From Craspedostauros australis (lineage: Eukaryota), in contig JALAGF010004655.1 of NCBI GenBank assembly GCA_030167865.1, positions 1 through 64,000 on the forward strand: a stretch of 64,000 nucleotides of DNA, read 5' to 3'. The first letter of the stretch is position 1; the number at the start of each line of letters is the position of its first letter. Below the pieces are notes generated by a model. It was given only the letters and a program-made list of their open reading frames with translations. It ran no database searches and had not been told where the DNA came from. Positions 4,979 to 60,792 of the stretch are shown in pieces. Made by a program: the position numbers and the translations under genes.

Positions 4979-7900
4979 TCATCGCTGCAGCGTTGGGCTG
5001 ACCAAGAAGCTCGGTGCTGCAGGCGGAGGGGCAATGAGGCCAACGATTCCGGACCCGCGGCGCGATGATGTGACGCTGGTTGCCATGCGGCTCTGCTGCA
5101 TCATGAGCTGATCGACCTCGTTGATCCGCACGGCGAATCCATCCACGTATTCCTCCAGGATTTTGCGGTCGGACTTGGTGATGCTCTGCTCCATCATCAA
5201 CGTTTCGATCAGAAGTCCGGCGGATCTGTAGCAGGATCGCGCCGCCTCGTGCTGTCCTAGCAACTGTTTGACGGCACCTTCTCGGCCGCACGCGAGAGAG
5301 TGATTGTAGATGAGTTCCTCGATTCCCATGGGGGTCGTGGCTGGCACCGACCTGTTGCTTGCCGCCATTTGCATCTTGTTGATTTCGGTTTGCGATGCAT
5401 CTGCGCGCTCCAGCACCCCCTTGAATTGCCCAGACAACCACTGCGTCGTGACTTCACACCGCTTCATCAACTGCGCAAAGTCGGTGGGTGGCGGTGACGA
5501 CGACGCTGGCGAAGACTGTGGAGCCGGCGGTGCCACGTTCTGGTTGCCCATCTGCGCGGAAAGGATTTCGTACTCCTTGCCGACCTTCTGTGCACCGCTC
5601 ACGGCGCTCTTGATCATCCGGAGAGCTTTGAGGTAGCACGACAACGCCTCGGCGAAGTGCGCCCGGATGGAGCTCGGGGTGGCCTTCGCCTGGGGTGGCT
5701 TGCTGTTGGCTGGTTTCGACGTGCTGTACATGGAATGGCTCTGTCGCGAAGGCAGCGAGACCGGGGCGGCTTCAGGACCGATAGCGAATGGCATCTCCTC
5801 TGCCTCTTCATCGACGATCTTTTTCGCATCCGCCATGGCTCTCTCCGATATCGATGATCGCCGGCGCGTGGATGACATGACCTCCGTCGAGCTGGATCCT
5901 TTGCTTCCGTTCTCGGAGTCATCATCGTCACCCGTGGCGTTCTTGTTGTCGTCGTTGCGCATGTTGCCTCTGCTTCTGCTGCCGCTATCGCTGACGTTTC
6001 CGTTGCTGCTGCCTCTGATATTGGCGGCGCCTGCATCCGCCGGTTCCTCGATGACACCCTCCATCGGCATGGAGGAGAGCATCGATGAGCTTTCGCCGCC
6101 AGACACGAGGAGACGCATGGCCAGGAAGGCTCGGGTGTCTCCAAGATGCGCCACGCTGATGGCACGGCGGCCCACATCTTCTGCTGTTGCCAGAAGCTTG
6201 TTCGCAGTTGCGAGCTGTATGTCCAACCTGGGCGGGCTGGTGCTGCTGGTTGGTGACGATGGTGTGTATCCCAAGCGTTGCGGCATGCGGCCCACCAATC
6301 CCATGAGCAACCCGCCTGTGCCGGGGCTGGTGCTGAGGATGCCCCTGCTGACGTTGCCCTGGTTGGACGGTGGCACCGAGTATTCGGCACGGCCTGACAC
6401 GACCGCCGGTGTGTTCATCATGTAGCGTGCAGGAGCGTTCGATCCGGCGTTGGCATCCATCATGCGGCGGTTTGGAATGAGCATGCCCTGTTGCTGATGC
6501 GGGACAGTCATCGCGATGCCCGATCCATCCAGCTGCGTTGCGAAGGGGTCATTTCTGGGAGCGATGTCTCGGTCCACCATCACAAAGCTGCCTTCATCCG
6601 CGGCTGGCGCGGGTGCACCGGCAGGCATTTGCGAGAACTCCACCCGTGGCAAGGCATTCATTGGCAGTCTCGCGCCCTGAGCTTGCCAGGCAGACACACC
6701 AGCGCTTTGCGGTGGAAGGCTTGGGATTGTGGGTATCCGCACATTGGAAAACACAGACGGGACGCTGCCCGGTGGGCTAGGCTGCAGGGGAGTCAATCGA
6801 TTGCGCTGGTTCGGCGGTATGTGGTGCATGTTGGGCGGGTATCCTGGCTGGCTGATGAACGGTGCTGGCGTTGCTGCTGGTTGTTGCTGCGGCACAACAT
6901 GGCGCACGAGAGGTGCCTGCGATGTGTTTGGCACTTGCGTAGGTGTGGATTGCGGGACGTACAACTGGTGGTGCTGTTGTTGTTGGTGCTGGAGATGTGG
7001 GTGGTGGTGATGCTGTTGCTGTGGCATTGGTTGTGCCGTGGTGGCCACCGTCATGAGACTATCCGAACCTGACGCGCCGTCGTCTTCTGGGATGGTTCCA
7101 AGGTCCTTCGCAGCAGGTGGATTGGAGGGCGACGAGGATGATGGAGCGATGGTCTTGCGACAAGTTCCCGTATCTGTCGTGGCCACTCCCTTGCAACCGA
7201 GCGCAACGAAGGCATCGGCCGCCTCGAAGAACTCCTTGAAGCCTGCGCGGCTCAAGGGGTTGCGATTGAGCAGGACGCGGAGGATATTGACGCAGGGCTT
7301 GGTAACTCGCACATCTTTGGGCAATCGCACCGAGTTCCTTTGGATGTTTCGCAGAAGGTCGATGTGATTCTCGCCGTTGAACGGTGGCTTTCCAGTTATC
7401 ATTTCGAAGAGCACGGTGCCGACGCTCCACAGGTCCGCCTTTGCGTCGTATCTGCGCAGCTCAGGAGAGAAGAAAACAGCAACGAGAAAGAGAAAGGACG
7501 TGATGCATGATGTGAGTTGTTCGTGCAATTGTTCGTTGGTTCATTCTCTGTCACAAGCAATGGTGTGTTGTGATGGGATGCAGATGAGAACCCATGAAAT
7601 TGAGCGGCGCTCATTGATGATGTGATGGCGAATGATGGGGTACGTACCTGTGATGTTGCAGAATTTCTGGTGCCATGTAGAGGGGTGATCCGCAGAGGGT
7701 TTCCGCAAGCGAGGCGGATTGCAGATGCCTGGCGAATCCAAAGTCAGCGATTTTGAGAGAAAATTGAGCGGAGGGGAAGTTCGCCTGTCGACGCAGCTCT
7801 TCCGCCTGCGGCGTGCGTTCCGGGTCGTTGAGCTCATCGAGGGGCAGGGCGCCCGTGAGGAGCAGGTTCTGCGGTTTGATGTCGCGGTGGATCAATTCCT

Positions 7901-45758: not shown

Positions 45759-48557
45759 ATGACCGTCTTCAGCGCCGGAAAGAGAAACCATGCTGCCTAC
45801 CTCATCTGCTGCAGCATGCTGTCAGCGCAGTCAGGCACCAGCGGACTGTGGATGGCCGATGCCTTCGTGCCGTCATTCAAATGCAACCGAGCATTCATCA
45901 CATTGCGGCCCGCCATGACGTCAAGCCACAAACGATCTTCACGTTTGTCTCCAGCCAACAGCAGCCGACGATTCCAACCAAGATCGATGCTTCGCATGAC
46001 GGCGGCGGATTCGAACATGGAAGACGCGGACGTCGTCGATGTGCCTGAGCAACAGACGCAACAGAATACCACGACGTCGAACAACTCCAAAGCTGGATCC
46101 AAGTACGGCATAACGATACCAAAGACAATGAAAACATACTCGGCCAAGTTCCTCGAGGGCAACGGTTTGGAAATCGTGTCGGATGATGAGGGACACGTCT
46201 CGGCTGTTCCCGCGGACCAGGTGGAGCCATTATCGGAATCGGAATCGAACGGGGCAGCAGCAGTCAGAAGAGATAGCAATGGCCACATCATCGATGTTCC
46301 TGCCGATGGTACCGGCGCGGTGGAACAACAATCCGCGTCAGGACATACGACAACAGCATCCGCCACAACACTTCCTGCAACTCAACAGGAACAGCATCAT
46401 CAACAGCAGCAGCAACAACAGCAGCAACAGCAGCAACAACTGGGAGCAGAAGAGGACAAGCCGAAGAAGCCGAAATTCTTCAAACGACCTCGCGTCAAGG
46501 AACAGCCAGCACAAATCGTGCCTCAGAGCGGGTTCAACGTCGTGCTCACACATTGCACAGCGGACTTCGATTCCTTGGCGAGCGCCGTGGGCTTGGCCAA
46601 GCTCTGGTCCGCCCAGAACAACAAACTCCAAAACGAGGGCGTTGACAAGTCGCAGTACGACAGCGCCTCCCACCTTCCAACCTTCGTCGTACTGCCGCGC
46701 GGCGCGCATCCCAGCGTCTATCGCTTCCTCGCCTTGCATAAGCACCTCTTCCCCATCCGTTCCTTGAAGTCCCTGCCGGACGATCTCTCGGGTCTCAACC
46801 GGCTGGGACTGGTGGATGCGCAGCGTCGAGATCGCATCGGCCCTGCCGAACCCCTGCTGGAGCACGCCAACCGTGTCACCGTCGTGGATCACCACATAGA
46901 CTCGGACTCCGATATCCCCGAAGCCACGGACTACGTCGTGGACAAGGTCGGCTCCGTGTCATCCCTCATCGTCGAGCGGCTCAGAGATGCCGATCTCGAT
47001 GACGGTCTGACGGAGGCCGAGGCCACCCTGCTGGCGCTTGGCATCCATGCTGATACGGGGTCGTTGGTCTACGATTCCACCACGGCACGCGACGCCGCGG
47101 CTTTGGCATGGCTCATGGAGCAGGGCGCCAGCCAGACCGCGATTGCCGAACATGCCCATTCCTCCCTCAGTGCCGAGCAGCAGGGCGTTCTCACGCAGGC
47201 GCTCATCCACACCAACTCCACCGAAATCCACGGCGTCACCATGTCGACGGTCCTGCTCAAGGCCGACGGCTTCATCAATGGGCTGGCGGCAGTCACGCAG
47301 GATGCGCTCGAACTGAGCAGCTCCGATGTCTACCTCCTCGGCATCGTCTACGAGGCGCGCTCCGGTGGCTCCAAGAAGGGATCCAAACGCAAGCAAGTCT
47401 CGGAGGGCATCCAGTCCCGATTGCTGCAGCCCGTCGGAACCACGACGCTCGATGACGACGGCCAGGACATGGCCAGCGCGGTTGGATACGACGGAGAAGA
47501 CGAGGCCATCCTGCGCAGAAAGCTCAGAGCCGCCTTCGATCGCAGCGACACTGACAAATCGGACTACCTCGACCGTCGCGAACTCACGGCGACCCTGAAT
47601 GCCTCGGGCATCATCGCCTCCGACCAGACCGTCAAGAACTTGATCTCCGTCATGGACACCAACGGCGATGGCAAGATCGATTTTGAGGAATTTGTCGCAT
47701 TCGCCAAGGATGTGGAACGCGAACAAAGTCGCTCCATCGCGACGAAGAAGCGTTCGCTGACGCTCATCATCATCGGACGCGTCAAGGCCGGCATCAACAT
47801 GAAGGCGGTCAACTTGGGGAAGCTGTTTGAAAAGTTCGGCGGCGGCGGACACGCCAAGGCAGCCTCGGCCACAGTTCGGCTCAACGATGAAGCCGAAGCC
47901 GATGTCATTATGGAAGGACTCGTCGAGGAGCTCGTGGAAACTAGCCTGAACCAACAGGCCATGGTGGCTGACTTCATGACAGCGCCAGTCCTCAGTGTCA
48001 AGCCGGACATGACGGAGACGCAAGTGGAAGACTTCTTCTCGCGGTACGACGTCCGGGCGCTGCCTGTCGTGGATGACGACAACAACGTGATCGGTTTGGT
48101 ATCGTACAAGGAAGTCGCGGCGGCCAAGCAACGCATGTGGAACAAGGAGCAGAAACGTGTGCGCCGTCTGCAGCAGCAGCAGGATGATGCCAAGAAGAAG
48201 GGCAAGCCCATGTCAGACGAAGAGATCGAAGAGGCCCACCGGATTTCGGATGAACGCCGCAAACGTGGTTCGACGGTGAAGGGCTGGATGAAGCAGCACG
48301 TGACAGTCGCGGAGATGAGCATGACCATGCCGCAGGTAGAAGGGATGCTGCTGGCCAACGATGTCGGTTGCATTCCCGTGGTGGCCGATGGGACCAAGCA
48401 GCTGATGGGCATGGTGACACGCACGGATCTGTTGCGGCAGCATCGGTACTATTCGACCTTGCACTACCACAACAAGGGATTCAGCGATTCCATCGCATTG
48501 CGTCAACCGATCATCAACCTTCGCAAGCGTCTGAAGAAGTTCGATCTGGATGATTGA
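45759..48557 (+). CDS. Plastid-targeted DHH/DHHA1 phosphoesterase with inserted EF-hand pair and C-terminal CBS pair
   Basis: ADAFVP presequence; THCTADFDSL, LVDAQ, VVDHH, GIHADTG; EF loops DTDKSDYLDRRE and DTNGDGKIDFEE; GGGGHAKAAS; two CBS repeats (ALPVVD..IGLVS; CIPVV..GMVTRTDLL). Confidence 0.88.
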   Translation: MTVFSAGKRNHAAYLICCSMLSAQSGTSGLWMADAFVPSFKCNRAFITLRPAMTSSHKRSSRLSPANSSRRFQPRSMLRMTAADSNMEDADVVDVPEQQTQQNTTTSNNSKAGSKYGITIPKTMKTYSAKFLEGNGLEIVSDDEGHVSAVPADQVEPLSESESNGAAAVRRDSNGHIIDVPADGTGAVEQQSASGHTTTASATTLPATQQEQHHQQQQQQQQQQQQQLGAEEDKPKKPKFFKRPRVKEQPAQIVPQSGFNVVLTHCTADFDSLASAVGLAKLWSAQNNKLQNEGVDKSQYDSASHLPTFVVLPRGAHPSVYRFLALHKHLFPIRSLKSLPDDLSGLNRLGLVDAQRRDRIGPAEPLLEHANRVTVVDHHIDSDSDIPEATDYVVDKVGSVSSLIVERLRDADLDDGLTEAEATLLALGIHADTGSLVYDSTTARDAAALAWLMEQGASQTAIAEHAHSSLSAEQQGVLTQALIHTNSTEIHGVTMSTVLLKADGFINGLAAVTQDALELSSSDVYLLGIVYEARSGGSKKGSKRKQVSEGIQSRLLQPVGTTTLDDDGQDMASAVGYDGEDEAILRRKLRAAFDRSDTDKSDYLDRRELTATLNASGIIASDQTVKNLISVMDTNGDGKIDFEEFVAFAKDVEREQSRSIATKKRSLTLIIIGRVKAGINMKAVNLGKLFEKFGGGGHAKAASATVRLNDEAEADVIMEGLVEELVETSLNQQAMVADFMTAPVLSVKPDMTETQVEDFFSRYDVRALPVVDDDNNVIGLVSYKEVAAAKQRMWNKEQKRVRRLQQQQDDAKKKGKPMSDEEIEEAHRISDERRKRGSTVKGWMKQHVTVAEMSMTMPQVEGMLLANDVGCIPVVADGTKQLMGMVTRTDLLRQHRYYSTLHYHNKGFSDSIALRQPIINLRKRLKKFDLDD

Positions 48558-49090: not shown

Positions 49091-51610
49091 CTATTTCATC
49101 GCGACCATCCATTCCACTTCTGTGAGGTACTTGACCCGCAGCTGGCGCCGATCGAACCATCGACCGGCAAATTTCGTGGCGCAGGCGCGGGCCCCGTCAA
49201 CCTTTTCGAAGCGCGCGCAGATCTTGCCGCCTGGAACATGCGACAGGACGCGAGACGAAATCAACTTGCCGAATCGGTGCGCCTCATCGTCGAATTCCTC
49301 CTTGAGATCCTGTTCCCAACCATCGTCGGTCTCCTTGTCCCTGTCGTACATGTTGAAGACCATGATTGTTTGAGACAGCGCGCCCGTGATATGATCCATG
49401 GGCGGGGGTGGTGGCGGCAGTCGATTGGTTGTGGGCAACGGCGGCGGGGGAGGTGGTGGGGGTGGCGGCAATCGTGGAGGAGGCGGCGGTGGTGGGATCC
49501 TTGCTGGCATCTGTCCATTCTTCGGCACCGCCTTATTCCAACCAGCGGGCGTGAAAGGCTGCGCGGAGTTGCGCAAGGGCGTGATCACGTTGGTCCCATT
49601 CTTGTGCTTGGCCGCGATGAGCTGCAGCGTCGCCATTGCGCGTTGGACTCTGTCGGATGCATCTGGCGGGAATTCGTTGGATATGCAAGCAGCTGCGTTG
49701 GGGTGGTTGGACTTTTGGCCGGCCCAACCGGTTCTGAGGGAACGACCAAGGAAGGGCTTGTTGGCCATGGTTTTGATGGCGAGGTTGGCATCTTTTGGGT
49801 TGACGAATGCGAGGAAGGCGTACCCCTTGCTGACGCGCGACACTGGATCGATCTGCAGCATCACCTTCTTGAGCGTCCCGAACTGCGAAAAGACGGCAAA
49901 CAGATGATCCTCCATGACGGAAGGATCGAGGCTCCCGATGTACACCTGCTGGCACCCGAGTGACTGCGGGCCATTGTGCATGGAAGCCAATCGTCTTGGC
50001 GCGTTGCGTCTTGGACCAAGGACGTTGGTCGGTCCTTGCGATTCTGGAAAGGCCTTTCTCCCTTCCTCCATGGTCTTGACGAGCAAGGGGAATCGTTGGA
50101 AGCCGGGTGCCTTGTCCGAGAGCGCGATCGCCCGTTTGACATCTTCCATCGATGCCATCTCTACATGCGCGAGTCCTTTGTGCTGGTCCTTCCCCCTGTC
50201 GCACAGCATGGTGACCTGGACGACGGCGCAGTTGTGCTTGGAGAAGAAGTCGTGAAGGTTGTGTTCCTTGGTGCGCATGACAAGCTGCGCGACCAGAACG
50301 GTGCGCTGATCCTGCGAGAAGTCTGAATCAATCTTTGGCGGTTGGTGTTCTTTGGAAGATCGGCTGCCATGCCGCGAGGAGTGGGTGCGTCTGCGCTTCC
50401 TGGTGCGTCGCGATGCATCCGAGCCGGACGATGACGCTGACGATCTGGAGTGGACCGATTCGTCAGATGAGGAGTAATCGTCGCGATCCGATTCCCTGGA
50501 TGAGTACGAGTGCGATCGATTGCGTTTGGAGTGGGAGATGGGCGATGGTGAGAGACGACGGTGCCGATCGTAGGATCTGGAGCGCGATCTCGATCTCGAC
50601 CGCGAGGGCGATCTGGAGCGTGACCTCGATCTGGAGCGTGAATTGGAAACAGACCTGGATCTTCTCCTCGCCTCCGACTTCGTTCTCGACGTGGATCTTG
50701 GCCTGGATCGAGATTGTGATCGTGAACGTGACCTACTGCGCGACCTTGGCCGCGAGTGGCTGTGAGCGTGCTTGCGTTGATTGTCACGTTTTGCGCTTCT
50801 GCCCCTGCGATTGTGCTCGTCACCACGATGCCTCGAGCGGGACCGTGATCCTCCACCGGACCTGGATCTCGATCTAGGACGACTGCGGCTACGGCTACGA
50901 CTGTGACTTCGAGGGCGGTTGCGGTAACCTCGGGGAGACGCAGTGCGCGATCTGGACCGCGATCTGGACATGGATCTCGTGCGTGACCGATCTCTCGATG
51001 ATCTGCTCCTGCTGGACGACGATGGACGTGCTGGGTCCTGGCAGCTGCCTTTGTGGCGATGCTGTTGGTGCGATGATGCATGATGCGATGAGTGGTGTGA
51101 CTGGTGCTGCGGTTGACGATGCGGATAGGAGTGCCCGTGGGAATGCGCATGTCCATGCGGGTGCTGTTGTTGGTGGGCATGACGATGATGTCGATGCGGT
51201 TGCTGATGATGGTGGGCATGTGAGCCACGCGGTCCACCCCAACCAGGAGCTGGTCCTCCTCGATGGTGCATTGGCTGAGATGGCTTGCGAGTCGCATCTC
51301 CAGACCGATCGGCGTGAGCATCGGCAGGGTAATCGTAGTACCCCCCATGTTCTTTGTCAGGAGCCCTCCGGTCAGCGTTGGGCTTCTGCATGTAGGGTGA
51401 TGGCCGGGCGCAGTCTTCGGGCGGCGACGATGATGATGGAGGCGATGACACCGACCCACGAGACGCCAAGTGAGGCGGAGGAAGGGATCCTCCTCCTGGG
51501 CGGCCTCCACTCCCTCGCAGCGGAGGTGGTGCGTGGCGGTACATCTCAACACTCCTATCGATGCTCGTACCGATGCTGTTGCGACGGGAGGCGGTGTCGA
51601 ATGAAGCCAC
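49091..51610 (-). CDS. RBM39/CAPER-like splicing factor (RS domain, 2 RRMs, C-terminal UHM)
   Basis: Long RS region; DQRTVLVAQL RRM1; VYIGSL..SKGYAFL RRM2; NMYD..E..W..DLKEE..FG..GRWFD UHM. Confidence 0.85.
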   Translation of the reverse strand: MASFDTASRRNSIGTSIDRSVEMYRHAPPPLRGSGGRPGGGSLPPPHLASRGSVSSPPSSSSPPEDCARPSPYMQKPNADRRAPDKEHGGYYDYPADAHADRSGDATRKPSQPMHHRGGPAPGWGGPRGSHAHHHQQPHRHHRHAHQQQHPHGHAHSHGHSYPHRQPQHQSHHSSHHASSHQQHRHKGSCQDPARPSSSSRSRSSRDRSRTRSMSRSRSRSRTASPRGYRNRPRSHSRSRSRSRPRSRSRSGGGSRSRSRHRGDEHNRRGRSAKRDNQRKHAHSHSRPRSRSRSRSRSQSRSRPRSTSRTKSEARRRSRSVSNSRSRSRSRSRSPSRSRSRSRSRSYDRHRRLSPSPISHSKRNRSHSYSSRESDRDDYSSSDESVHSRSSASSSGSDASRRTRKRRRTHSSRHGSRSSKEHQPPKIDSDFSQDQRTVLVAQLVMRTKEHNLHDFFSKHNCAVVQVTMLCDRGKDQHKGLAHVEMASMEDVKRAIALSDKAPGFQRFPLLVKTMEEGRKAFPESQGPTNVLGPRRNAPRRLASMHNGPQSLGCQQVYIGSLDPSVMEDHLFAVFSQFGTLKKVMLQIDPVSRVSKGYAFLAFVNPKDANLAIKTMANKPFLGRSLRTGWAGQKSNHPNAAACISNEFPPDASDRVQRAMATLQLIAAKHKNGTNVITPLRNSAQPFTPAGWNKAVPKNGQMPARIPPPPPPPRLPPPPPPPPPPLPTTNRLPPPPPPMDHITGALSQTIMVFNMYDRDKETDDGWEQDLKEEFDDEAHRFGKLISSRVLSHVPGGKICARFEKVDGARACATKFAGRWFDRRQLRVKYLTEVEWMVAMK

Positions 51611-52696: not shown

Positions 52697-55600
52697 ATGG
52701 TGCGCAAGCGGTTGGACGACCGCGTCCGCGCCTTGATCGAGCGCGGCGTCGTGACGGGGGAGCGGTCCATGCTGGTGCTCGTGGGCGATCATGGCAAGGA
52801 TCAGGTGCCCAACCTGCATCAGATCCTCACCCGCACCACCATCCAGCAACGACCCAACGTGCTGTGGTGCTACAAGAAGGATCTAGGCTTCTCCACGCAT
52901 CGCAAGAAGCGCATGAAGAAGCTGCGTCGCGACAAATCGCGCGGACTCTCCAGCAACGCCTCCCTCGCGGATCAGGCCGACAACTTCGAGCTATTCGTGT
53001 CGGGAACGGACATCTCCTGGTGCTACTACAGGGACTCCCACCGCGTGCTGGGCACCACCGTCGGCATGCTGGTGCTGCAGGACTTTGAGGCCCTCACGCC
53101 CAACCTCATGGCCCGCACCATCGAGACGGTGCGCGGTGGCGGCCTGGTCATCTTCCTCATGCGCACCGTCAAGTCGCTCAAGCAGCTCTACGCCATGAGC
53201 ATGGACGTTCACGCACGCTACCGCACGGAATCGGCGGGAGACGTCGTGCCGCGCTTCAACGAACGATTCATCCTTTCCTTGGCCAAGTGTCAGAATTGTC
53301 TGGTCTGCGATGACGAGCTCAACGTGCTGCCCTTGTCGAAGCGCACCCTGCAGCGGTTGAATCCCAAGGCGTTGGAGAAGGGCGAAGCCGGCGAGGTCGT
53401 CGTGCGGGAGACGCCCGAGGAGGCGGAACTCAGGGACCTCAAGCAATCCCTCATCGACACGCCGCACGTGGGGGTGCTCGTGGACCTGGCCAAGACCCTG
53501 GACCAGGCCAAGGCGCTGCTCGTCTTCCTGGAGGCGTGTTCCGAAAAGACGACCAAGTCGACAGTTGCCATGACGGCGGCTCGTGGCCGTGGCAAATCAG
53601 CTGCCATGGGTCTGTGCCTCGCCGGCGCCATCTCGCTCGGTTACTCCACCCTGGCAGTCACGGCACCGGCACCGGAGAATCTTGTCAGCGTCTTTGACTT
53701 TCTTTGCCGTGGTCTGAAGGCGCTCAAGTACCAGGAGCACATGGATTACAACATCACGTACAATAATGCATCAGGCAGGGAGCAGACGAAGTGCATCATC
53801 GCCATCCATCTGCATCGCAGCCACAGGCAGGTCATACAGTACATCTCACCGGATGAGAAGGACAAGTTCACGTCAGCGGAGATCGTTGCCATCGACGAGG
53901 CTGCAGCCATTCCATTGCCGATCGTGCGGACGCTCATGCACCAGCCGGACCGTCTCACCTTTGTCAGTTCCACCGTCAACGGCTACGAGGGCACGGGACG
54001 TGCGCTCAGCCTGAAGTTGATCAAGGAGCTGCGAGAAAGCAAGGGAGGTCGGTCGGCGGAGCTGTCGGTTGCCAACGCGGCAGCCAACAGCATCGCCGGA
54101 ACCAGATCCAACAAGGGCCAGGCCAAGACGCATGACAAGCGCTACCAGGCAGCGGCCGCCGCGCTTGTGGATGCGTCCGGCGACAACCTCACGGGGCCGC
54201 TGCGCGAGATCGAGCTCTCCATGCCCATCCGTTACGCCGAAGGTGATGGCATCGAGAGCTGGCTCAACAAGCTCCTCTGCTTGGACTGCGGGTCCAGCGC
54301 GCAGTTGAAGCTGCAGGGAGGTGCACCGGCGCCTGGCGATTGCGAATTGTACAGCGTCGACCGCGACGCCCTCTTCTCCTACCACAAACTCTCCGAATCA
54401 TTCCTGCAGAAGCTCATGGGCCTCTACACCAGCGCGCACTACAAGAACACTCCCAACGATCTGCAAATGCTGTCCGATGCACCATCGCACAAGGTCTTCG
54501 TTCTGCTGTCACCGGCCGCAGAGAAGGATGCGAACTCATTGCCGGATATCCTGGCGGTCGTTCAGGTCGCCTTGGAGGGAAAGATCTCACGACGTGCCGT
54601 CGAAGCGCAGCTGGCGCGTGGTCATCGGTCCGCCGGTGATCTCATCCCGTGGACGATCTCACAGCAGTTCGGCGATTCCAAGTTTGCTCAGCTCAGCGGC
54701 GCTCGTCTTGTGCGAGTTGCGGTTCATCCATCGGTGCAGGGCATGGGATATGGATCGAGAGCGATCGAACAGCTCTATCGATTTTACAACGGCGACATGA
54801 TCTCCTTGGATAACATGGAGGACGATGATGACGAGGACAACAACGACGATGAGAATAATGATGGCGATGATGATGATGACGAAGACTCTGATTACGGCGG
54901 TGGCAATGCCAATGGTAGCAGCAACAAATCCAATGGAAACGGGAAAAAGGGTGGCATCCAAGAAGAAAAGGTGGCACCACGAAAGGAGCTCCCGCCGTTG
55001 CTACTTCCATTGACTGACGTCGATGCACCGGCGCTGGATTGGATCGGCACTTCGTTCGGCCTGACGGAGCAGCTGCACAAGTTCTGGAACCGCACAGGCA
55101 TGAAGCTCCTGTACACGAGGCAAACAAAGAACGAGCTCACGGGCGAACACTCTGCGATCATGATCCGCGCCCTGCCAAAGCAGTCCGGGGTTGACGATGC
55201 GTGGCTGGATGCTTTCGTCGCTGACACCAAGCGCCGATTCGTGGCGTTGCTCGGTGGAGCATTCCGCGACATGCCAATTCGCTTGGCCATCTCATCGCTG
55301 GACAACATGACATCGTCGGATGCATCGGCCGGCGACGCCAAGCGTTCTGGCATCAAGCACAGCAAGGTGACGGTCGACGAGCTCACGCAGATGATCACAC
55401 ATCACGATCTGAAGCGCCTGGAGTTGTACGGTCGCAATCTTTGTGATCACCATCTCGTCACCGATCTATTGCCGACAGTGGCCCGACTATTCTTCATGAA
55501 CCGTCTCGGTGACACCTTCAACCTCTCCAGCGTCCAGTCCGCGTTGCTGTGTGGCATCGGATTGCAGAATCGTGATGTCGATTCCATGACGAAGGAGCTG

Positions 55601-56125
55601 GGACTCCCTGCCAACCAAGTCCTCGCGTTGTTCAACAAGGCCATGCGGAAGGTGTCGATCGCCCTCAACGGTGTTGTTGAAGACGAAGAGAAGAAGGCAT
55701 TGCTCGGCGGCGACAAACGTGCCAAGGTGGAAGCCAAGGTCAGCAAGATGCGTGACGTTGCTGGCAAGACGTTGGATGAGGATGCGGCTGACGCTGCCCA
55801 GGATGCCATGGCCGAATTCAACGGCAATGGCAGCAACGGCGCCAACGGAAGGAAGAAGAACAATGTGAAGACTCTGCGTGCGGATGTCGCGAACGACGAG
55901 TCCATCATGCAGTACGCCATCAAGGGGAACGATGAGCAGTGGAGCAAGGTGCTGGACGGAAAGACGTTGGACGGAACTGGAACTGGCACTGTGCAGATAC
56001 AAAGCGTCCGCGACAAGCGCAAGGCCACCGACGAGGATGACTACACCCGTGAGCAGGATGGTGAGCCAACACCAAAGAAGTCGAAGAAGAAGGGTGGCAA
56101 GAAGAAGAACAAAGGAAGACGATAG
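52697..56125 (+). CDS. NAT10: RNA cytidine acetyltransferase NAT10/Kre33
   Basis: VLWCYKKDLGFS, LQDFEALTPNL.ARTIETV.GGG, TAARGRGKSA Walker A, DEAAAIP, HYKN.PNDLQ, GNAT RVAVHP..QGMGYGSR; basic C-terminal NLS. Confidence 0.97.
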   Translation: MVRKRLDDRVRALIERGVVTGERSMLVLVGDHGKDQVPNLHQILTRTTIQQRPNVLWCYKKDLGFSTHRKKRMKKLRRDKSRGLSSNASLADQADNFELFVSGTDISWCYYRDSHRVLGTTVGMLVLQDFEALTPNLMARTIETVRGGGLVIFLMRTVKSLKQLYAMSMDVHARYRTESAGDVVPRFNERFILSLAKCQNCLVCDDELNVLPLSKRTLQRLNPKALEKGEAGEVVVRETPEEAELRDLKQSLIDTPHVGVLVDLAKTLDQAKALLVFLEACSEKTTKSTVAMTAARGRGKSAAMGLCLAGAISLGYSTLAVTAPAPENLVSVFDFLCRGLKALKYQEHMDYNITYNNASGREQTKCIIAIHLHRSHRQVIQYISPDEKDKFTSAEIVAIDEAAAIPLPIVRTLMHQPDRLTFVSSTVNGYEGTGRALSLKLIKELRESKGGRSAELSVANAAANSIAGTRSNKGQAKTHDKRYQAAAAALVDASGDNLTGPLREIELSMPIRYAEGDGIESWLNKLLCLDCGSSAQLKLQGGAPAPGDCELYSVDRDALFSYHKLSESFLQKLMGLYTSAHYKNTPNDLQMLSDAPSHKVFVLLSPAAEKDANSLPDILAVVQVALEGKISRRAVEAQLARGHRSAGDLIPWTISQQFGDSKFAQLSGARLVRVAVHPSVQGMGYGSRAIEQLYRFYNGDMISLDNMEDDDDEDNNDDENNDGDDDDDEDSDYGGGNANGSSNKSNGNGKKGGIQEEKVAPRKELPPLLLPLTDVDAPALDWIGTSFGLTEQLHKFWNRTGMKLLYTRQTKNELTGEHSAIMIRALPKQSGVDDAWLDAFVADTKRRFVALLGGAFRDMPIRLAISSLDNMTSSDASAGDAKRSGIKHSKVTVDELTQMITHHDLKRLELYGRNLCDHHLVTDLLPTVARLFFMNRLGDTFNLSSVQSALLCGIGLQNRDVDSMTKELGLPANQVLALFNKAMRKVSIALNGVVEDEEKKALLGGDKRAKVEAKVSKMRDVAGKTLDEDAADAAQDAMAEFNGNGSNGANGRKKNNVKTLRADVANDESIMQYAIKGNDEQWSKVLDGKTLDGTGTGTVQIQSVRDKRKATDEDDYTREQDGEPTPKKSKKKGGKKKNKGRR

Positions 56126-56572: not shown

Positions 56573-59488
56573 CTATCGCCTGGCATTGAAATCAGGAGCC
56601 GGTAGGCCCAGCACCGCCCGGAGGCCACGGCTCAGCAGACGCTCTCCGAGGCGCACGACGAACTCATTGGCCGCCACTTGCACTTTTGGCTCTTGCGCCA
56701 GCTTGCGCACGATGGGAATGAACTTGGACACGTCCGTGTCGGTGGCGCCAGTGTCGAGGAGCTCGATGATACGGCTGAACCGTGCCATCGTGGGCGGCAT
56801 GTTGGGCAGCGAGGTGCGCACGTCCTCGGCCACGTTGCCCTGCTGGGAGATGAGGCGTTGGAAGGTGCGGAAAGCACGCACGGCGGTGACCTCGTCGTTG
56901 ATGGCGAGCGCGGCGGACGCTCTGGAGAGGTATCCGACGGTCTCCGCGCCCAGACTGTCGGTGGCTTCGACCAGCTGATCGGAGAGGTCGGTCAGGAGGA
57001 GGCTACCCTCGTCCGAGATGATGTAATCCGTCAGAACGTCCAGCGCGGCCAGGACGTCGTATCCCGAAGACGATTTGGCCTCGTCCAGGAGGCTTTCGAG
57101 ACGGTTCCATCTGATTCTGCCGTCGCTGGTGAGTGCCAATCGCTTGAGGGCTTCGTGCATGTCATCCTGCGGATCCGTCAAGACACGGCTGGCAACGTAG
57201 GGGTAGGCATCGCTGATGATGCGCGACGATGGTTCGACCTGAATGGCGACACCCTCTAGGACTCCAAGGCAGCGGATGATGGCGATGTAGAAGGGTGGCA
57301 ACGAGAATGGGTAGGTGTACATGATGTCCCCAAGCGAGTTGATGACATTCTTGAAGTTGAGCTCCGAGACGTCAGCATTGAGGACGTCAGGAAGCGCCTT
57401 TTCGAGGGCTGCCTTGATGGGCTCCACATCAGTGTCTTCCGGAATGAACCCCAAGCGTTGGTAGACCCGGACGAGCTGATCCCAATCACGGTTGACGATG
57501 TGCACCACGGCAAGCACGAAGCCATTGCGCTGAGATCGGTCCGCGTAGGAGACCATTCCGAAATCCAAATAGCAGAGCTTGCCATCGGGACATGCCAGCA
57601 GATTGCCGGCATGTGGGTCTGCAAATTGAGAGCAGTGTGGCATTGTGAGCAAAGGGACGAGCGGGCGAAGGAACTTTGATGTATCACGTCTGGCTGTGCA
57701 TGAAGAGCATCAGCACGTCAGCCTCCAATACGAGCAGGCTAAATCCGTCATGCAACACACAGGGCATGTGCTGACGCAATCCAATGTAGCACGATGAAAC
57801 ACAATTAAGTACACCCTACGCTCCCTCAGCATACTCTTCCACAACATGCACCTCCTCAGCATGCTCCTCCCACAAGTACGAGTATACTCACCAGCATGAA
57901 AGAAGCCATTCTCAAGGATCTGCTGCAGACTGCACTGCACGAGACAGTCGATGAGCTTCTTTGGTTCCAAGCCGTACCGCGCCAACGCGTCCGTATCGCT
58001 GATGCGCACACCGTCGACCCACTCCATGACGAGGACCTTGCGCGTTGTGAGATCGGAGTAGACCTTGGGCACGAAGACGTCCGTGACGCCGGCATAGAGC
58101 TCGTTGAATCGCTGTGCGTTGGCAGCCTCGGCAACGTAGTCGATCTCACGGTAGATGAGGTCGCCGAAATCGTCGATGATGGACTGCACGTTGATATCGC
58201 GGTTGAGGAATTCGAAGAGCTTGTTGTAGACGCCGCTCCACCAGCGCAGGACGTAGAGATCGAGCGCAATGATCTGCTCGCAGTTGGGACGCTGGATCTT
58301 GAGCGCGACGGTGTCGCCGTTGGCCTTGAGGCGGGCCTTGTAAACTTGCCCGATGGAGGCGGCCGCGATGGGTTCGTCCTCCACGAGCTCGAATATGTCG
58401 TCGAAGTTGACGCCGAGCTCCTGGTCGACGATTCGGAAGGCGAGGTCGTTGGAGAAGCGCGGCACGTCGTCCTGGAGTTTCTGCAGTTCGTCGAGGTACT
58501 CCGAGGGCAGGAGATCGGGACGGCTGGCCAACGCCTGACCTGCCTTGATGATGGCAGGACCCAGACCGGAGATGGCCTGTTGGAGCTGCGCGGCACGCTT
58601 GCGCCTTTGATCGCTGGATTTGGACTTGCCCATGAGGAAGTCGAAGACGACGCCAGCAGCCCACAGGCCGAACGGTCCGGCGATCTGCACGTTGCGCACG
58701 AGCCACTTGGTGGGCTGTCGGAAGAGCAGCTTCTCCGCTGCAACGGGATCGTACTTGACGAGGGGTTCTGCAACCTTGACACCTCGTCGGAATGCGTATC
58801 GCGTGACGACATCACCGCCGTCCAAAAGGCCGTTGACCCACACGTTGTCGTCCACGACGATCTGCGAGCCGTCGCCGTTGACGCCCGCATCGAGTGACGA
58901 CGATGGCCCCACCGCGATGCCATGATCGCTGGAACCGTTGGCACTGCCATTGACGCTGCCATTGCCAATGATCGAAGCATCAGCGTTTGCATTGAGGTTG
59001 GATTTGGTCAATCCGTTCGGAGGCAGAGGAGTCATTCTGACGGTCGGCAGGGAGGGCGACGGAGACATGAGCGACGCTTCCTGATCCGCCGCCAGCTGGT
59101 CCAGAAGCTTTCTGGCCTTTTGAAGCCGAGGGGAGTAGGGCTGGTCCTTCCTCCTGCGTTCCCATTTTGTGCCAACTGCGTTATCTGCCGCTGCATCGGA
59201 GGATGGCTGTCCATCCTTGCTGCCTGCATTGCTGCCTGCATTGCTGCTCGCTGTGGATGTCTCCTTGTCCAACGAGGCAACGTTCAAACGCCATTGAGAG
59301 GCAAACCCAGCGTTCCTCGACGCCGCAGCCGATGCCACCGCAGCCGAAGGAATGCGCCGAGGGGATGGAGCCACGAAGGCATCGCAGGTGGAGGGAGCAG
59401 CGACGGCAACAGTGGCTGCCACCACCATCAAGACGCTCCACGATGTCATGATCATGCTCGTGGATCGTATCCGCTGCCTTTCCTCCAT
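56573..59488 (-). CDS. ABC1/UbiB (AarF) atypical kinase, probably plastid-targeted; 2 exons, intron 57891-57619
   Basis: LGPAIIKAGQALASRPD, LQDDVP, AAASIGQVY, VALKIQRP, EIDY..EA, MEWVDG; splice joins GFFHA-DPHAGN; LDFGM; CDAFVAP presequence. Confidence 0.93.
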
Positions 59489-60792
59489 CTTGTTGTGTTT
59501 CTCGCTTTGCTTCTCTTTTGTTGATCCCAAACCTGCTTCCTTCGATCGACTGTTCCTTAGCTGGGATGTCGTTCGGATTATGATTGCATCATCAAGCAGT
59601 CCCAGAGAGGCCGAGATGTGCAAGCCGAAGGGCGGAAGATGCGCCGCGTGGTGCGTCGAGGTGTTTAGTGGATGTCACGCGTCTCGCTGACGCGAAATGA
59701 AAAGAAGGTGAAGAAGAATGAGCATCTGTTCCCGAGATCAAGGAGGACTGGTTCGTGATTAAATATTTGAATCGTGTTTGTTGGGGCTATGTATGTCAAC
59801 AATACAACACACTATCATGACTCCGGATTCCAAATTCCAGCTGAAAGAGAAGAAATGAGTTTGATTTCTTGACTAACGGCTATATTTTCATATATATATT
59901 AAGTCATTAATGAGTACATAAAACGACGCGAACCCAATGATCTATGTGAATGCATCGGCGTGCGTTAGAATCGGCGAAACACTGGAAGACAAACAAACCT
60001 CGCCACATGATGAGCATGTCCAACAACATGAACAGAAACAACACATTCTGCGTGTGACAGTGCGCCACAGTGCGCGAAGTATTGCGGCAGCACGTTGTTG
60101 GTGTTCTTTGTGATGTAGTGATGTGAGCAGCAGCAGGTACGTATTGGTAGCGCGAGGTGTTGTCATTGCGCGGGCGTTTAGTTACCTACCAGCACTCTAC
60201 GCGGCTGGGAAAGGAGCCTCGAAGCCAAGAGTGGGAGCAAGTCAGGTGAGCCAAACACAGCGACAACGACAAACACAACAGCCGAGGCATGCCAAGCCAA
60301 GCCAAGCCAGAATTCAAAAAGGAGAAGGACAAGTCCTCACCCAACCGAAAGCGCCGTGAGCAGCCTCATCGATCAGTCAAGAGAAACACACCAACAATAG
60401 CGGCAACAACTGCGTACTCGCAATCCAAGAACATTCCAACATCGACCACAGTGATAACAACGATAACAACGATAACGACAGCACCAGCACTCACCTTTGT
60501 TGTTCCCACCATCAATAGCATCAAAACAAACCCCTTCAGCAGTCTACTATACATCACCATCGCTGCACACCACCAAAACACAACACACTTTCATCGCCTC
60601 ATCATTCTGCTTTGCAGCTCCAGCATTCTTGACTTTGTGATAAAAACAGTAGCGTCAACCACAGCATCATCATTCGAAGCGACATTCAAGCAGCAAACTG
60701 CAGATAGCAACGACTGAACAATCAATTCAACACCAACGACGCACGTCACACAAAGCATCAATTACACACGACACATCACAGCATCAGCAATC

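Follow-up and report, generated by a model that had tools for sequence, protein, structure and literature searches.

The 64,000-nucleotide stretch analyzed here (the window; contig JALAGF010004655.1, assembly GCA_030167865.1, from Craspedostauros australis) carries on its forward strand a single-exon open reading frame (ORF) for a predicted plastid-imported phosphoesterase, in which a DHH catalytic domain, a DHHA1 domain split by a pair of EF-hands, and two CBS domains follow one another (Table 1). Pfam recognizes DHH (PF01368) at residues 261 to 429 (E = 8.6e-9; 36.2 bits, passing the cutoff of 28.1), the pair model EF-hand_7 (PF13499) at residues 587 to 649 (E = 7.1e-15, with four further EF-hand models above their cutoffs), DHHA1 at residues 670 to 714 (E = 1.1e-4, profile positions 34 to 92 only), and CBS (PF00571) in two stretches (E = 6.8e-21). 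No Pfam match in the protein was found for PolyA_pol (PF01743, up to an E value of 1), PAS, GGDEF, DHHA2, or DRTGG. An earlier note on this DNA, made from the letters and a list of ORFs, had proposed this domain order, with intact catalytic motifs and an EF-hand pair lying between the DHH core and the GGGH motif of DHHA1. Pfam and a 79-sequence alignment bear this out, and the EF loop positions that the note gave (~47545 to 47690) are correct within two bases; the C-terminal CBS pair that it named is likewise recovered by Pfam.

The 79-sequence alignment (A1) comprises the window protein, 36 other EF-bearing proteins, and further eukaryotic and cyanobacterial proteins. Across it, the motif set of the DHH superfamily (DxD, D, DHH, and D(T/S)G) is found complete, as D269 and D271 (motif I), D353 (motif II), D377, H378, and H379 (motif III), and D432 and T433 (motif IV) are invariant, and these residues match the motifs of GdpP one by one. 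Invariance extends in DHHA1 to R674, G695, G697, and H698, that is, to the GGGH motif and the Arg on the preceding strand that together form the signature of DHH-DHHA1 subfamily 1. Residue conservation thus shows a predicted two-metal DHH site and a predicted GGGH/Arg substrate-binding face of DHHA1 that are both intact.

An AlphaFold2 (AF2) model built on this alignment has a mean predicted local distance difference test score (pLDDT) of 88.7 and a predicted template modeling score (pTM) of 0.76. The best Foldseek match is the GdpP catalytic domain (E = 1.7e-17); TM1595 comes next (E = 1.7e-15), followed in order by a Deinococcus RecJ-like protein, mycobacterial NrnA, DhhP, Rv2837c, and Bacillus NrnA. 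With VIA-align, GdpP superposes at Z = 24.2 and a root-mean-square deviation (rmsd) of 3.9 over 308 of 332 residues, the aligned part (model residues 2 to 472) taking in both sides of the insert, and TM1595 (Z = 21.4), Rv2837c (Z = 20.4), and NrnA (Z = 19.7 to 20.1) superpose over ~300 of ~325 residues. Family II pyrophosphatases reach a Z of ~21, most of them over only ~190 to 200 residues at an rmsd of 2.7 to 2.9, which corresponds to the DHH domain alone. Among PDB sequences, the entire core draws mostly calmodulin-type matches to the EF-hands, so the alignment profile and the DHH part alone were used as queries too; the profile finds TmPDE and GdpP at 1.7e-19, DhhP at 2.7e-17, and Rv2837c/NrnA at 9.5e-17. 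Because the structural matches to GdpP, TM1595, Rv2837c, and NrnA span both domains, whereas those to pyrophosphatases mostly cover DHH only, the enzyme is by its modeled fold a DHH-DHHA1 subfamily 1 phosphoesterase. Stand-alone bacterial DHH/DHHA1/CBS proteins of ~440 to 490 amino acids (aa) make up the top named clusters in the ESM Atlas; at a score of 0.82, below the 0.9 level, they serve as leads only.

The EF-hands lie in an insert of ~130 residues (537 to 668) that begins with a disordered lead of basic and acidic residues (537 to 580; pLDDT < 60) and continues into the EF-hand pair, whose four helices are modeled with a pLDDT of >90. The site of insertion can be placed at single-residue resolution, between the strands VYLLGIVYEA and LTLIIIGRV of a DHHA1 beta-hairpin, where relatives lacking EF-hands have a turn of 4 to 8 residues. 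Two 12-residue loops with flanking helices, as in PF13499 pairs, are present as D-x-D-x-S-D-...-E (loop 1) and D-x-N-G-D-G-...-E (loop 2) and are predicted Ca2+ sites; in PDB sequence searches, the pair matches troponin C, centrin, and calmodulin. Each loop retains its Ca2+ ligand pattern (positions 1, 3, 5, and 12) in 129 of 136 homologues. All 136 read through the insert in frame, including 10 listed ones that come from MMETSP transcriptomes and each have PF13499; a chimeric ORF or an EF segment that is spliced out, either of which the earlier note would have counted against its own proposal, is contradicted by this conservation. At the same turn, one relative that looks unrelated (P0152, 863 aa) has ~140 inserted residues of another kind, without EF-hands, and a further long insertion follows its GGGH. 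The turn therefore tolerates insertions and seems to be an insertion hot spot.

Beyond DHHA1, the two CBS stretches form a tandem (Bateman) module that aligns with CBSX2-AMP, MJ0100, and AcuB at Z = 18 to 19.5 (VIA-align). The CBS modules matched at this level were solved with AMP, ADP, ATP, or Ap4A, and adenylate binding is predicted for the module of the window protein. The sequence GMVTRTD in CBS2 we take to be the GhhTxxD ribose-binding motif. Between CBS1 and CBS2 lies a helical insert of ~48 residues, which relatives without EF-hands skip (query residues 790 to 837) and which is missing also from the cyanobacterial relatives. The ORF ends 32 residues past CBS2.

Table 1. Features of the DHH-DHHA1-EF-CBS gene and neighboring ORFs in the window
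Feature	Coordinates	Strand	Basis
Whole gene, 932 codons plus stop, single-exon ORF	45759..48557	+	ORF analysis; longest ORF of the region, frame uninterrupted
Putative signal peptide; hydrophobic core residues 12-23 (45792-45827); predicted cleavage ADA-F between residues 35 and 36	45759..45863	+	Hydrophobicity, homologue N termini
Transit-peptide-like region, Ser/Arg/Thr-rich, then variable acidic linker	45864..46130	+	Composition; unconserved among homologues
Conserved N-terminal motif KTYSAKFLEGNGLEIVSDDEGHVSAVP, predicted beta-hairpin	46131..46211	+	Motif profile; pLDDT 82-84, two strands in model 2
Low-complexity linker with polyglutamine run (46383-46439)	46212..46520	+	pLDDT <50; residues ~152-230 absent from P0002
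DHH catalytic domain; motif I DFD 46551-46571, II 46806-46835, III DHH 46881-46895, IV DTG 47040-47060	46539..47045	+	Pfam, alignment
Interdomain linker helices and first DHHA1 half, to strand VYLLGIVYEA	47061..47366	+	Structural model; GdpP alignment
Clade-specific insert, ~130 residues (537-668), at DHHA1 beta-hairpin turn	47367..47762	+	Alignment, structural model
Predicted EF-hand pair; loop 1 (DTDKSDYLDRRE) 47547-47582, loop 2 (DTNGDGKIDFEE) 47655-47690	47517..47705	+	Pfam, PDB sequence matches
Second DHHA1 half: strand LTLIIIGRV with invariant R674, GGGGHAKAASA (47838-47870)	47763..47900	+	Pfam, alignment
CBS domain 1	47964..48125	+	Pfam
Charged helical insert between CBS1 and CBS2, EF-clade-specific	48126..48272	+	Alignment; two helices, pLDDT >90
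CBS domain 2, GMVTRTDLL motif	48270..48458	+	Pfam; in alignment A2, T-R-T-D conservation is 90% or higher
Conserved C-terminal tail YYSTLHYHNKGFSD...LRKRLKKFDLDD	48447..48554	+	Consensus of alignments A1 and A2
RRM protein, very long Arg/Ser- and His-rich tracts	49091-51610	-	Neighboring ORF
NAT10/TmcA-type RNA cytidine acetyltransferase, complete	52697-56125	+	Neighboring ORF
ABC1 atypical kinase	57710-59623	-	Neighboring ORF
ATG1-like kinase fragment	4979-7528	-	Neighboring ORF

Bipartite plastid signals of the ASAFAP type consist of an endoplasmic reticulum signal peptide, a cleavage site after which the first residue (+1) is Phe or another aromatic, and a transit-peptide-like stretch. The N terminus of the window protein, with ADA-F at residues 33 to 36, downstream of the hydrophobic stretch at residues 12 to 23, fits such a signal, and a stromal location is predicted. 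The signal peptide plus AF presequence of the earlier note is in this way tentatively judged to be of plastid type under a home-made and crude rule, which asks for a 10-residue window that scores 2.0 or more for hydrophobicity and then [AGSC]F 5 to 31 residues past the window start. The rule was applied to 121 EF-type sequences, of which 27 with short or partial N termini were set aside. A hydrophobic window is found in 57 of the 94 evaluable N termini and is followed by [AGSC]F in 46 of the 57, against 0.19 of random windows. Relatives without EF-hands carry the same kind of presequence signal. Between the transit peptide and the DHH domain, with disorder on both flanks, lies a motif of ~27 residues (YSAKFLxDNGLxIxTDxxGxVTARP-like), the profile of which picks up 93 of 118 EF-type homologues and leaves every EF-less homologue unmatched; the predicted hairpin may dock on the protein body. 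In the linker that follows, residues ~152 to 230 (46212 to 46449), which include the polyglutamine run, are probably a lineage-specific expansion.

In a first homologue search, the 120 best matches were 60 to 90% identical to the window protein, and every listed row had the EF-hand and CBS families. They include the pennate genera Seminavis, Nitzschia, Epithemia, Mayamaea, and Cylindrotheca, plus Odontella; the closest orthologue (P0002) is 90% identical over residues 231 to 932. As far as these sequences tell, the EF-bearing architecture is conserved across pennate and centric diatoms. Names in the databases are inconsistent for this family, ranging over "nanoRNase/pAp phosphatase," "phosphoesterase RecJ domain protein," and "polyA polymerase," and some deposited names mislead, such as "Cystathionine beta-synthase," "Inosine-5'-monophosphate dehydrogenase," and "polyA polymerase" on red-algal proteins (P0296, P0313, and P0299) and a Nitzschia protein (P0103).

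A total of 288 homologues were fetched, 173 of which cover DHH, DHHA1, and both CBS domains. Among these 173, the EF segment is present in 136 and missing in 28, and 9 more EF-less proteins have a C-terminal tail of >250 residues; PolyA_pol follows the CBS pair in all three of the long relatives (920 to 965 aa) that were scanned. Stand-alone proteins lacking the EF-hands occur in brown algae (Ectocarpus, Scytosiphon, Pylaiella, and Ascophyllum), in Tribonema and Chrysoparadoxa, and in red algae (Gracilaria, Agarophyton, Gracilariopsis, Pyropia, and Timspurckia). Judged from this sampling, red algae and nondiatom ochrophytes ordinarily have the EF-less form; green-plant names are absent among the matches listed. 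Gracilaria and Agarophyton have two paralogues each, which fall in separate red-algal clades. Both the inter-CBS helical insert and the N-terminal hairpin motif are seen in EF-type proteins only.

The best NCBIfam match is NF041569, the A-adding tRNA nucleotidyltransferase, at 138.4 bits over the N-terminal part of the profile only. In a prokaryote genome collection, 78 of the best 80 loci are cyanobacterial by the genus names in their titles, and 67 of the 69 complete ORFs at these 80 loci are 896 to 1,069 aa long. According to the earlier note, the module forms the N-terminal part of cyanobacterial-type A-adding enzymes, and here it is not followed by a nucleotidyltransferase domain; the NF041569 match, the prokaryotic loci, and Pfam all agree with this. 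The only non-cyanobacterial named record among the 80 (L018, a 5,858-base contig of a Chloroflexaceae metagenome-assembled genome) bears a 918-aa fusion gene of cyanobacterial type, which may reflect a binning error or a transfer.

Phylogenetic trees were computed under LG+G4 from core columns without the insert, one with 56 rows (including 14 of the 37 EF-bearing rows of A1) and one with 45 rows. Cyanobacteria are parted from eukaryotes with support of 98 (56 rows) and 100/99 (45 rows). Red algae are basal in the eukaryotic part, with an ochrophyte-type clade within it (99/98). All EF-bearing rows form one clade, with Shimodaira-Hasegawa-like approximate likelihood ratio test (SH-aLRT) support of 100 in the 56-row tree and 100/100 in the 45-row tree, and inside this clade P0129 is sister to the named diatoms (97/97). 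Together, the matches and trees show, at the level of sequence, a module that traces back to the N-terminal half of a cyanobacterial A-adding tRNA nucleotidyltransferase and stands alone in red algae and ochrophytes, and an EF-hand pair that was inserted once, in the diatom lineage, into the DHHA1 beta-hairpin turn. The simplest history would be that a cyanobacterial module became a stand-alone plastid-targeted red-algal protein, passed to ochrophytes with the red plastid, and acquired the EF insert once, when diatoms began to radiate or shortly before.

The neighboring ORFs are eukaryotic nuclear genes, so that the gene stands in an ordinary nuclear context. Our best reading, to which we give a probability of roughly 55% as a whole, is that the locus is a nuclear diatom gene whose product, a DHH-DHHA1 phosphoesterase of the NrnA/GdpP/TM1595 type, is competent in catalysis and imported into the plastid, where it hydrolyzes nanoRNA, pApA, or pAp in the stroma under regulation by Ca2+ and adenylates; the substrate and the regulation are inferred. 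The enzyme would hydrolyze short 5'-phosphorylated nucleotides in the stroma, namely, nanoRNA of 2 to 5 nucleotides (nt), linear dinucleotides such as pApA, and possibly pAp. In DHH-DHHA1 enzymes, the mobile DHHA1 domain holds the substrate and closes onto the DHH metal site. The cleft between the two domains would have to shut on the substrate here as well, and Ca2+ bound to an EF-hand pair that is anchored at the mobile DHHA1 hairpin could shift the ease with which it closes; alternatively, a Ca2+-dependent change in the EF-hands might lead to docking on another part of the protein. In CBS-pyrophosphatases, the CBS pair confers regulation by adenine nucleotides, and the pair in the window protein may sense AMP, ADP, or ATP in the same manner. 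In combination, these features would make the final step in the turnover of plastid RNA or dinucleotides responsive to Ca2+ transients in the stroma and to energy charge.

Several observations weigh against this reading. No strong hydrophobic region is present in 37 of the 94 evaluable homologue N termini, which are perhaps truncated gene models, and [AGSC]F is missing from 11 of the 57 that have one. The DHHA1 match, at 23.0 bits, stays below the gathering score of 25.9, because the insert splits the domain. Position 6 of EF loop 1 (47562 to 47564) is Asp in C. australis and Gly in 129 of 136 homologues, including P0002, and this Asp may weaken Ca2+ binding at the first site. In the model, the placement of the EF-hand pair relative to the active-site cleft is argued from topology, and the fold does not separate nanoRNase, pApA-ase, and cyclic di-AMP (c-di-AMP) phosphodiesterase, with GdpP, a c-di-AMP enzyme, scoring highest. 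The ancestry in a tRNA-repair enzyme could indicate a tRNA-end substrate. Expression in C. australis is uncertain; the 3' end of the gene is matched by one identical 586-nt contig (48047 to 48632) from a library whose type, "RNA?", is only guessed, and the EF segment is left uncovered.

The rank of the GdpP catalytic domain as the top structural match suggests instead a dedicated GdpP-like c-di-AMP phosphodiesterase, which would end a plastid c-di-AMP signal of cyanobacterial ancestry and would now be under Ca2+ control. Cyanobacteria use c-di-AMP, and a phosphodiesterase of the DHH-DHHA1 type was judged "likely not present" there, according to the relevant part of PMC5986932. However, the Z gap from GdpP to TM1595, Rv2837c, and NrnA is just 3 to 4 units, with all of them aligning over ~300 residues, the PAS and GGDEF domains of GdpP are missing, and a full-text literature search gave no link of diadenylate cyclase or c-di-AMP to diatoms or plastids; we regard this specialization as distinctly unlikely. 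Alternatively, a job kept from the cyanobacterial fusion would make the protein an RNA-end phosphoesterase that partners the plastid CCA-adding enzyme and trims or dephosphorylates damaged tRNA 3' ends. In all of the closest prokaryotic relatives, the module is joined to a nucleotidyltransferase of the PolyA_pol type, and the catalytic residues are invariant in these fusions too, so the module would be active there; its role in A-adding enzymes is stated to be unknown in the portion of PMC7947759 that deals with it. Yet the fusion has been lost in red algae and all ochrophytes examined while the module is still under strong constraint, which argues for a function independent of the transferase, and the solved relatives act on mono- to pentanucleotides, by their structure titles, making a tRNA-end substrate unlikely. 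The NCBIfam PRK14869 models (putative Mn-dependent diphosphatase with CBS domains), matching at 1e-15 to 1e-10, and the Z values of family II pyrophosphatases would point to a DHH-superfamily inorganic pyrophosphatase or exopolyphosphatase under regulation by CBS domains. Most of those structural matches are limited to the DHH domain, though, the C-terminal domain is a DHHA1 with GGGH and not a DHHA2, the CBS pair comes after DHHA1 and not inside DHH, and family II pyrophosphatases are absent from the 60 best PDB profile matches, so that we give this identity very little credence.

Other doubts concern regulation and the gene model. EF-hand pairs can be constitutively Ca2+ loaded, and the unusual Asp in loop 1 would suit a pair that is structural, or that serves partner binding or oligomerization, without sensing Ca2+; equally, the protein might be mainly a nucleotide-binding regulator and not an enzyme. 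The retention of the four ligand positions by 129 of 136 homologues in both loops and the invariance of all catalytic residues speak against these readings, and we think that neither has much chance of being right. Last, the EF segment could be an artifact, either of a chimeric ORF or of an unspliced intron read through. There is no RNA run on record for C. australis, and because residues ~152 to 230 are missing from the closest orthologue, the linker could in principle hide an in-frame intron. The in-frame conservation of the EF insert, which includes the transcriptome-derived proteins, and the confidence with which its helices are modeled leave this explanation extremely improbable.

Returning to the reading of a regulated stromal hydrolase, we judge nanoRNA and linear dinucleotides to be the likeliest substrates, since plastids and cyanobacteria need such an activity and since two papers point to gaps that it would fill. 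Cyanobacteria are described as having neither Orn nor NrnA/NrnB homologues, with their oligoribonuclease unidentified, in the pertinent part of PMC10989914, and the function of the extension is called unclear in that of PMC7947759. We tentatively suggest, as a possibility on which we would not yet rely, that the DHH-DHHA1-CBS2 module is the missing oligoribonuclease (dinuclease) of cyanobacteria and red-lineage plastids, present in the former as the N-terminal half of the A-adding enzyme and brought under Ca2+ control in diatoms by a calmodulin-like lobe in the substrate-binding domain. If true, stromal Ca2+ transients would be linked to a pool of nanoRNA that is able to prime transcription. 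In any case, this family, whose NrnA/GdpP-type active site is intact from cyanobacteria to red algae and ochrophytes, is a testable candidate both for this oligoribonuclease and for the role of the N-terminal extension. Placed inside DHHA1, the domain that moves to shut the active site, an EF-hand pair would lend itself naturally to allosteric switching; should the enzyme prove independent of Ca2+, or act only on bulk pyrophosphate, its interest would be that of an ordinary paralogue.

A full-text literature search, with most subscription journals and supplements outside its scope, found no study of an EF-bearing DHH-DHHA1-CBS protein or of a diatom or plastid nanoRNase and no described case of an EF-hand pair inside a DHHA1 domain, although such a protein may be listed in a table of a proteome or of EF-hand proteins. 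It also found no characterized protein with the architecture, which the author of the earlier note had not recognized from any. The protein is thus a known catalytic family in a new, lineage-specific regulatory build, and it is best described against the systems that share its parts.

GdpP, TM1595 (TmPDE), Rv2837c/CnpB, NrnA/Pde2, and DhhP have in common with it the two-domain DHH plus DHHA1 fold, motifs I to IV, GGGH, and the DHHA1 Arg. Enzymes of this subfamily hydrolyze nanoRNA, pAp, pApA, or c-di-AMP in a Mn2+-dependent manner. Identity to these enzymes is only 13 to 22%, with significant homology at the profile level, and the diatom protein adds the EF insert, a C-terminal CBS pair, and a eukaryotic plastid presequence. 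It lacks the transmembrane, PAS, and GGDEF parts of GdpP; membership in the GdpP family was rejected, as there is no PAS or GGDEF match and the N terminus is a presequence and a low-complexity linker. The closest prokaryotic relative is the cyanobacterial A-adding enzyme (NF041569), whose N-terminal DHH-DHHA1-CBS-CBS half has the same domain order and is 31 to 38% identical, and which is sister to all of the eukaryotic proteins in the trees. The cyanobacterial enzymes have no EF insert, inter-CBS insert, or presequence, whereas the diatom protein has neither the PolyA_pol head nor the RNA-binding domain. Membership in this family was rejected as well, given the lack of a PF01743 match, the score of 138.4 bits against a cutoff of 1440, and the short stretch of ORF that remains past CBS2. 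Family II CBS-pyrophosphatases likewise pair a DHH-superfamily hydrolase with CBS domains. They differ in having DHHA2 and a CBS pair inside DHH, whereas the diatom protein has DHHA1, C-terminal CBS domains, and no DRTGG; a pyrophosphatase identity was rejected on the missing DHHA2 match, the position of the CBS pair C-terminal to DHHA1, and the alignment mostly over DHH only.

For the acquisition of EF-hands, the nearest analogue is CRSH, the plant chloroplast RelA/SpoT homologue, a plastid enzyme that is activated by its EF-hands, as set out in the part of PMC10107265 on this enzyme. From what is given there, CRSH is a plastid nucleotide-messenger enzyme of bacterial ancestry with two acquired EF-hands, an analogue in logic and not a homologue. 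It differs in its fold, in carrying the EF-hands as a C-terminal extension and not within a domain of the catalytic core, and in occurring in plants and green algae and not in diatoms. Within diatoms, the plastid K+/H+ antiporter PtKEA3 of Phaeodactylum has an EF-hand that is missing in Viridiplantae orthologues; Ca2+ binding was shown, and because the phenotype after loss of the EF-hand resembled that of a knockout, the authors inferred that the protein was inactive, according to the sections of the preprint concerned (bioRxiv 10.1101/2021.09.06.459119). With the gene described here, a nucleotide-turnover enzyme would join the short list of diatom plastid proteins with acquired EF-hands, offering a handle on the targets of stromal Ca2+ signals, and PtKEA3, from an unrelated protein family, provides the precedent for such lineage-specific Ca2+ wiring of diatom plastid proteins.

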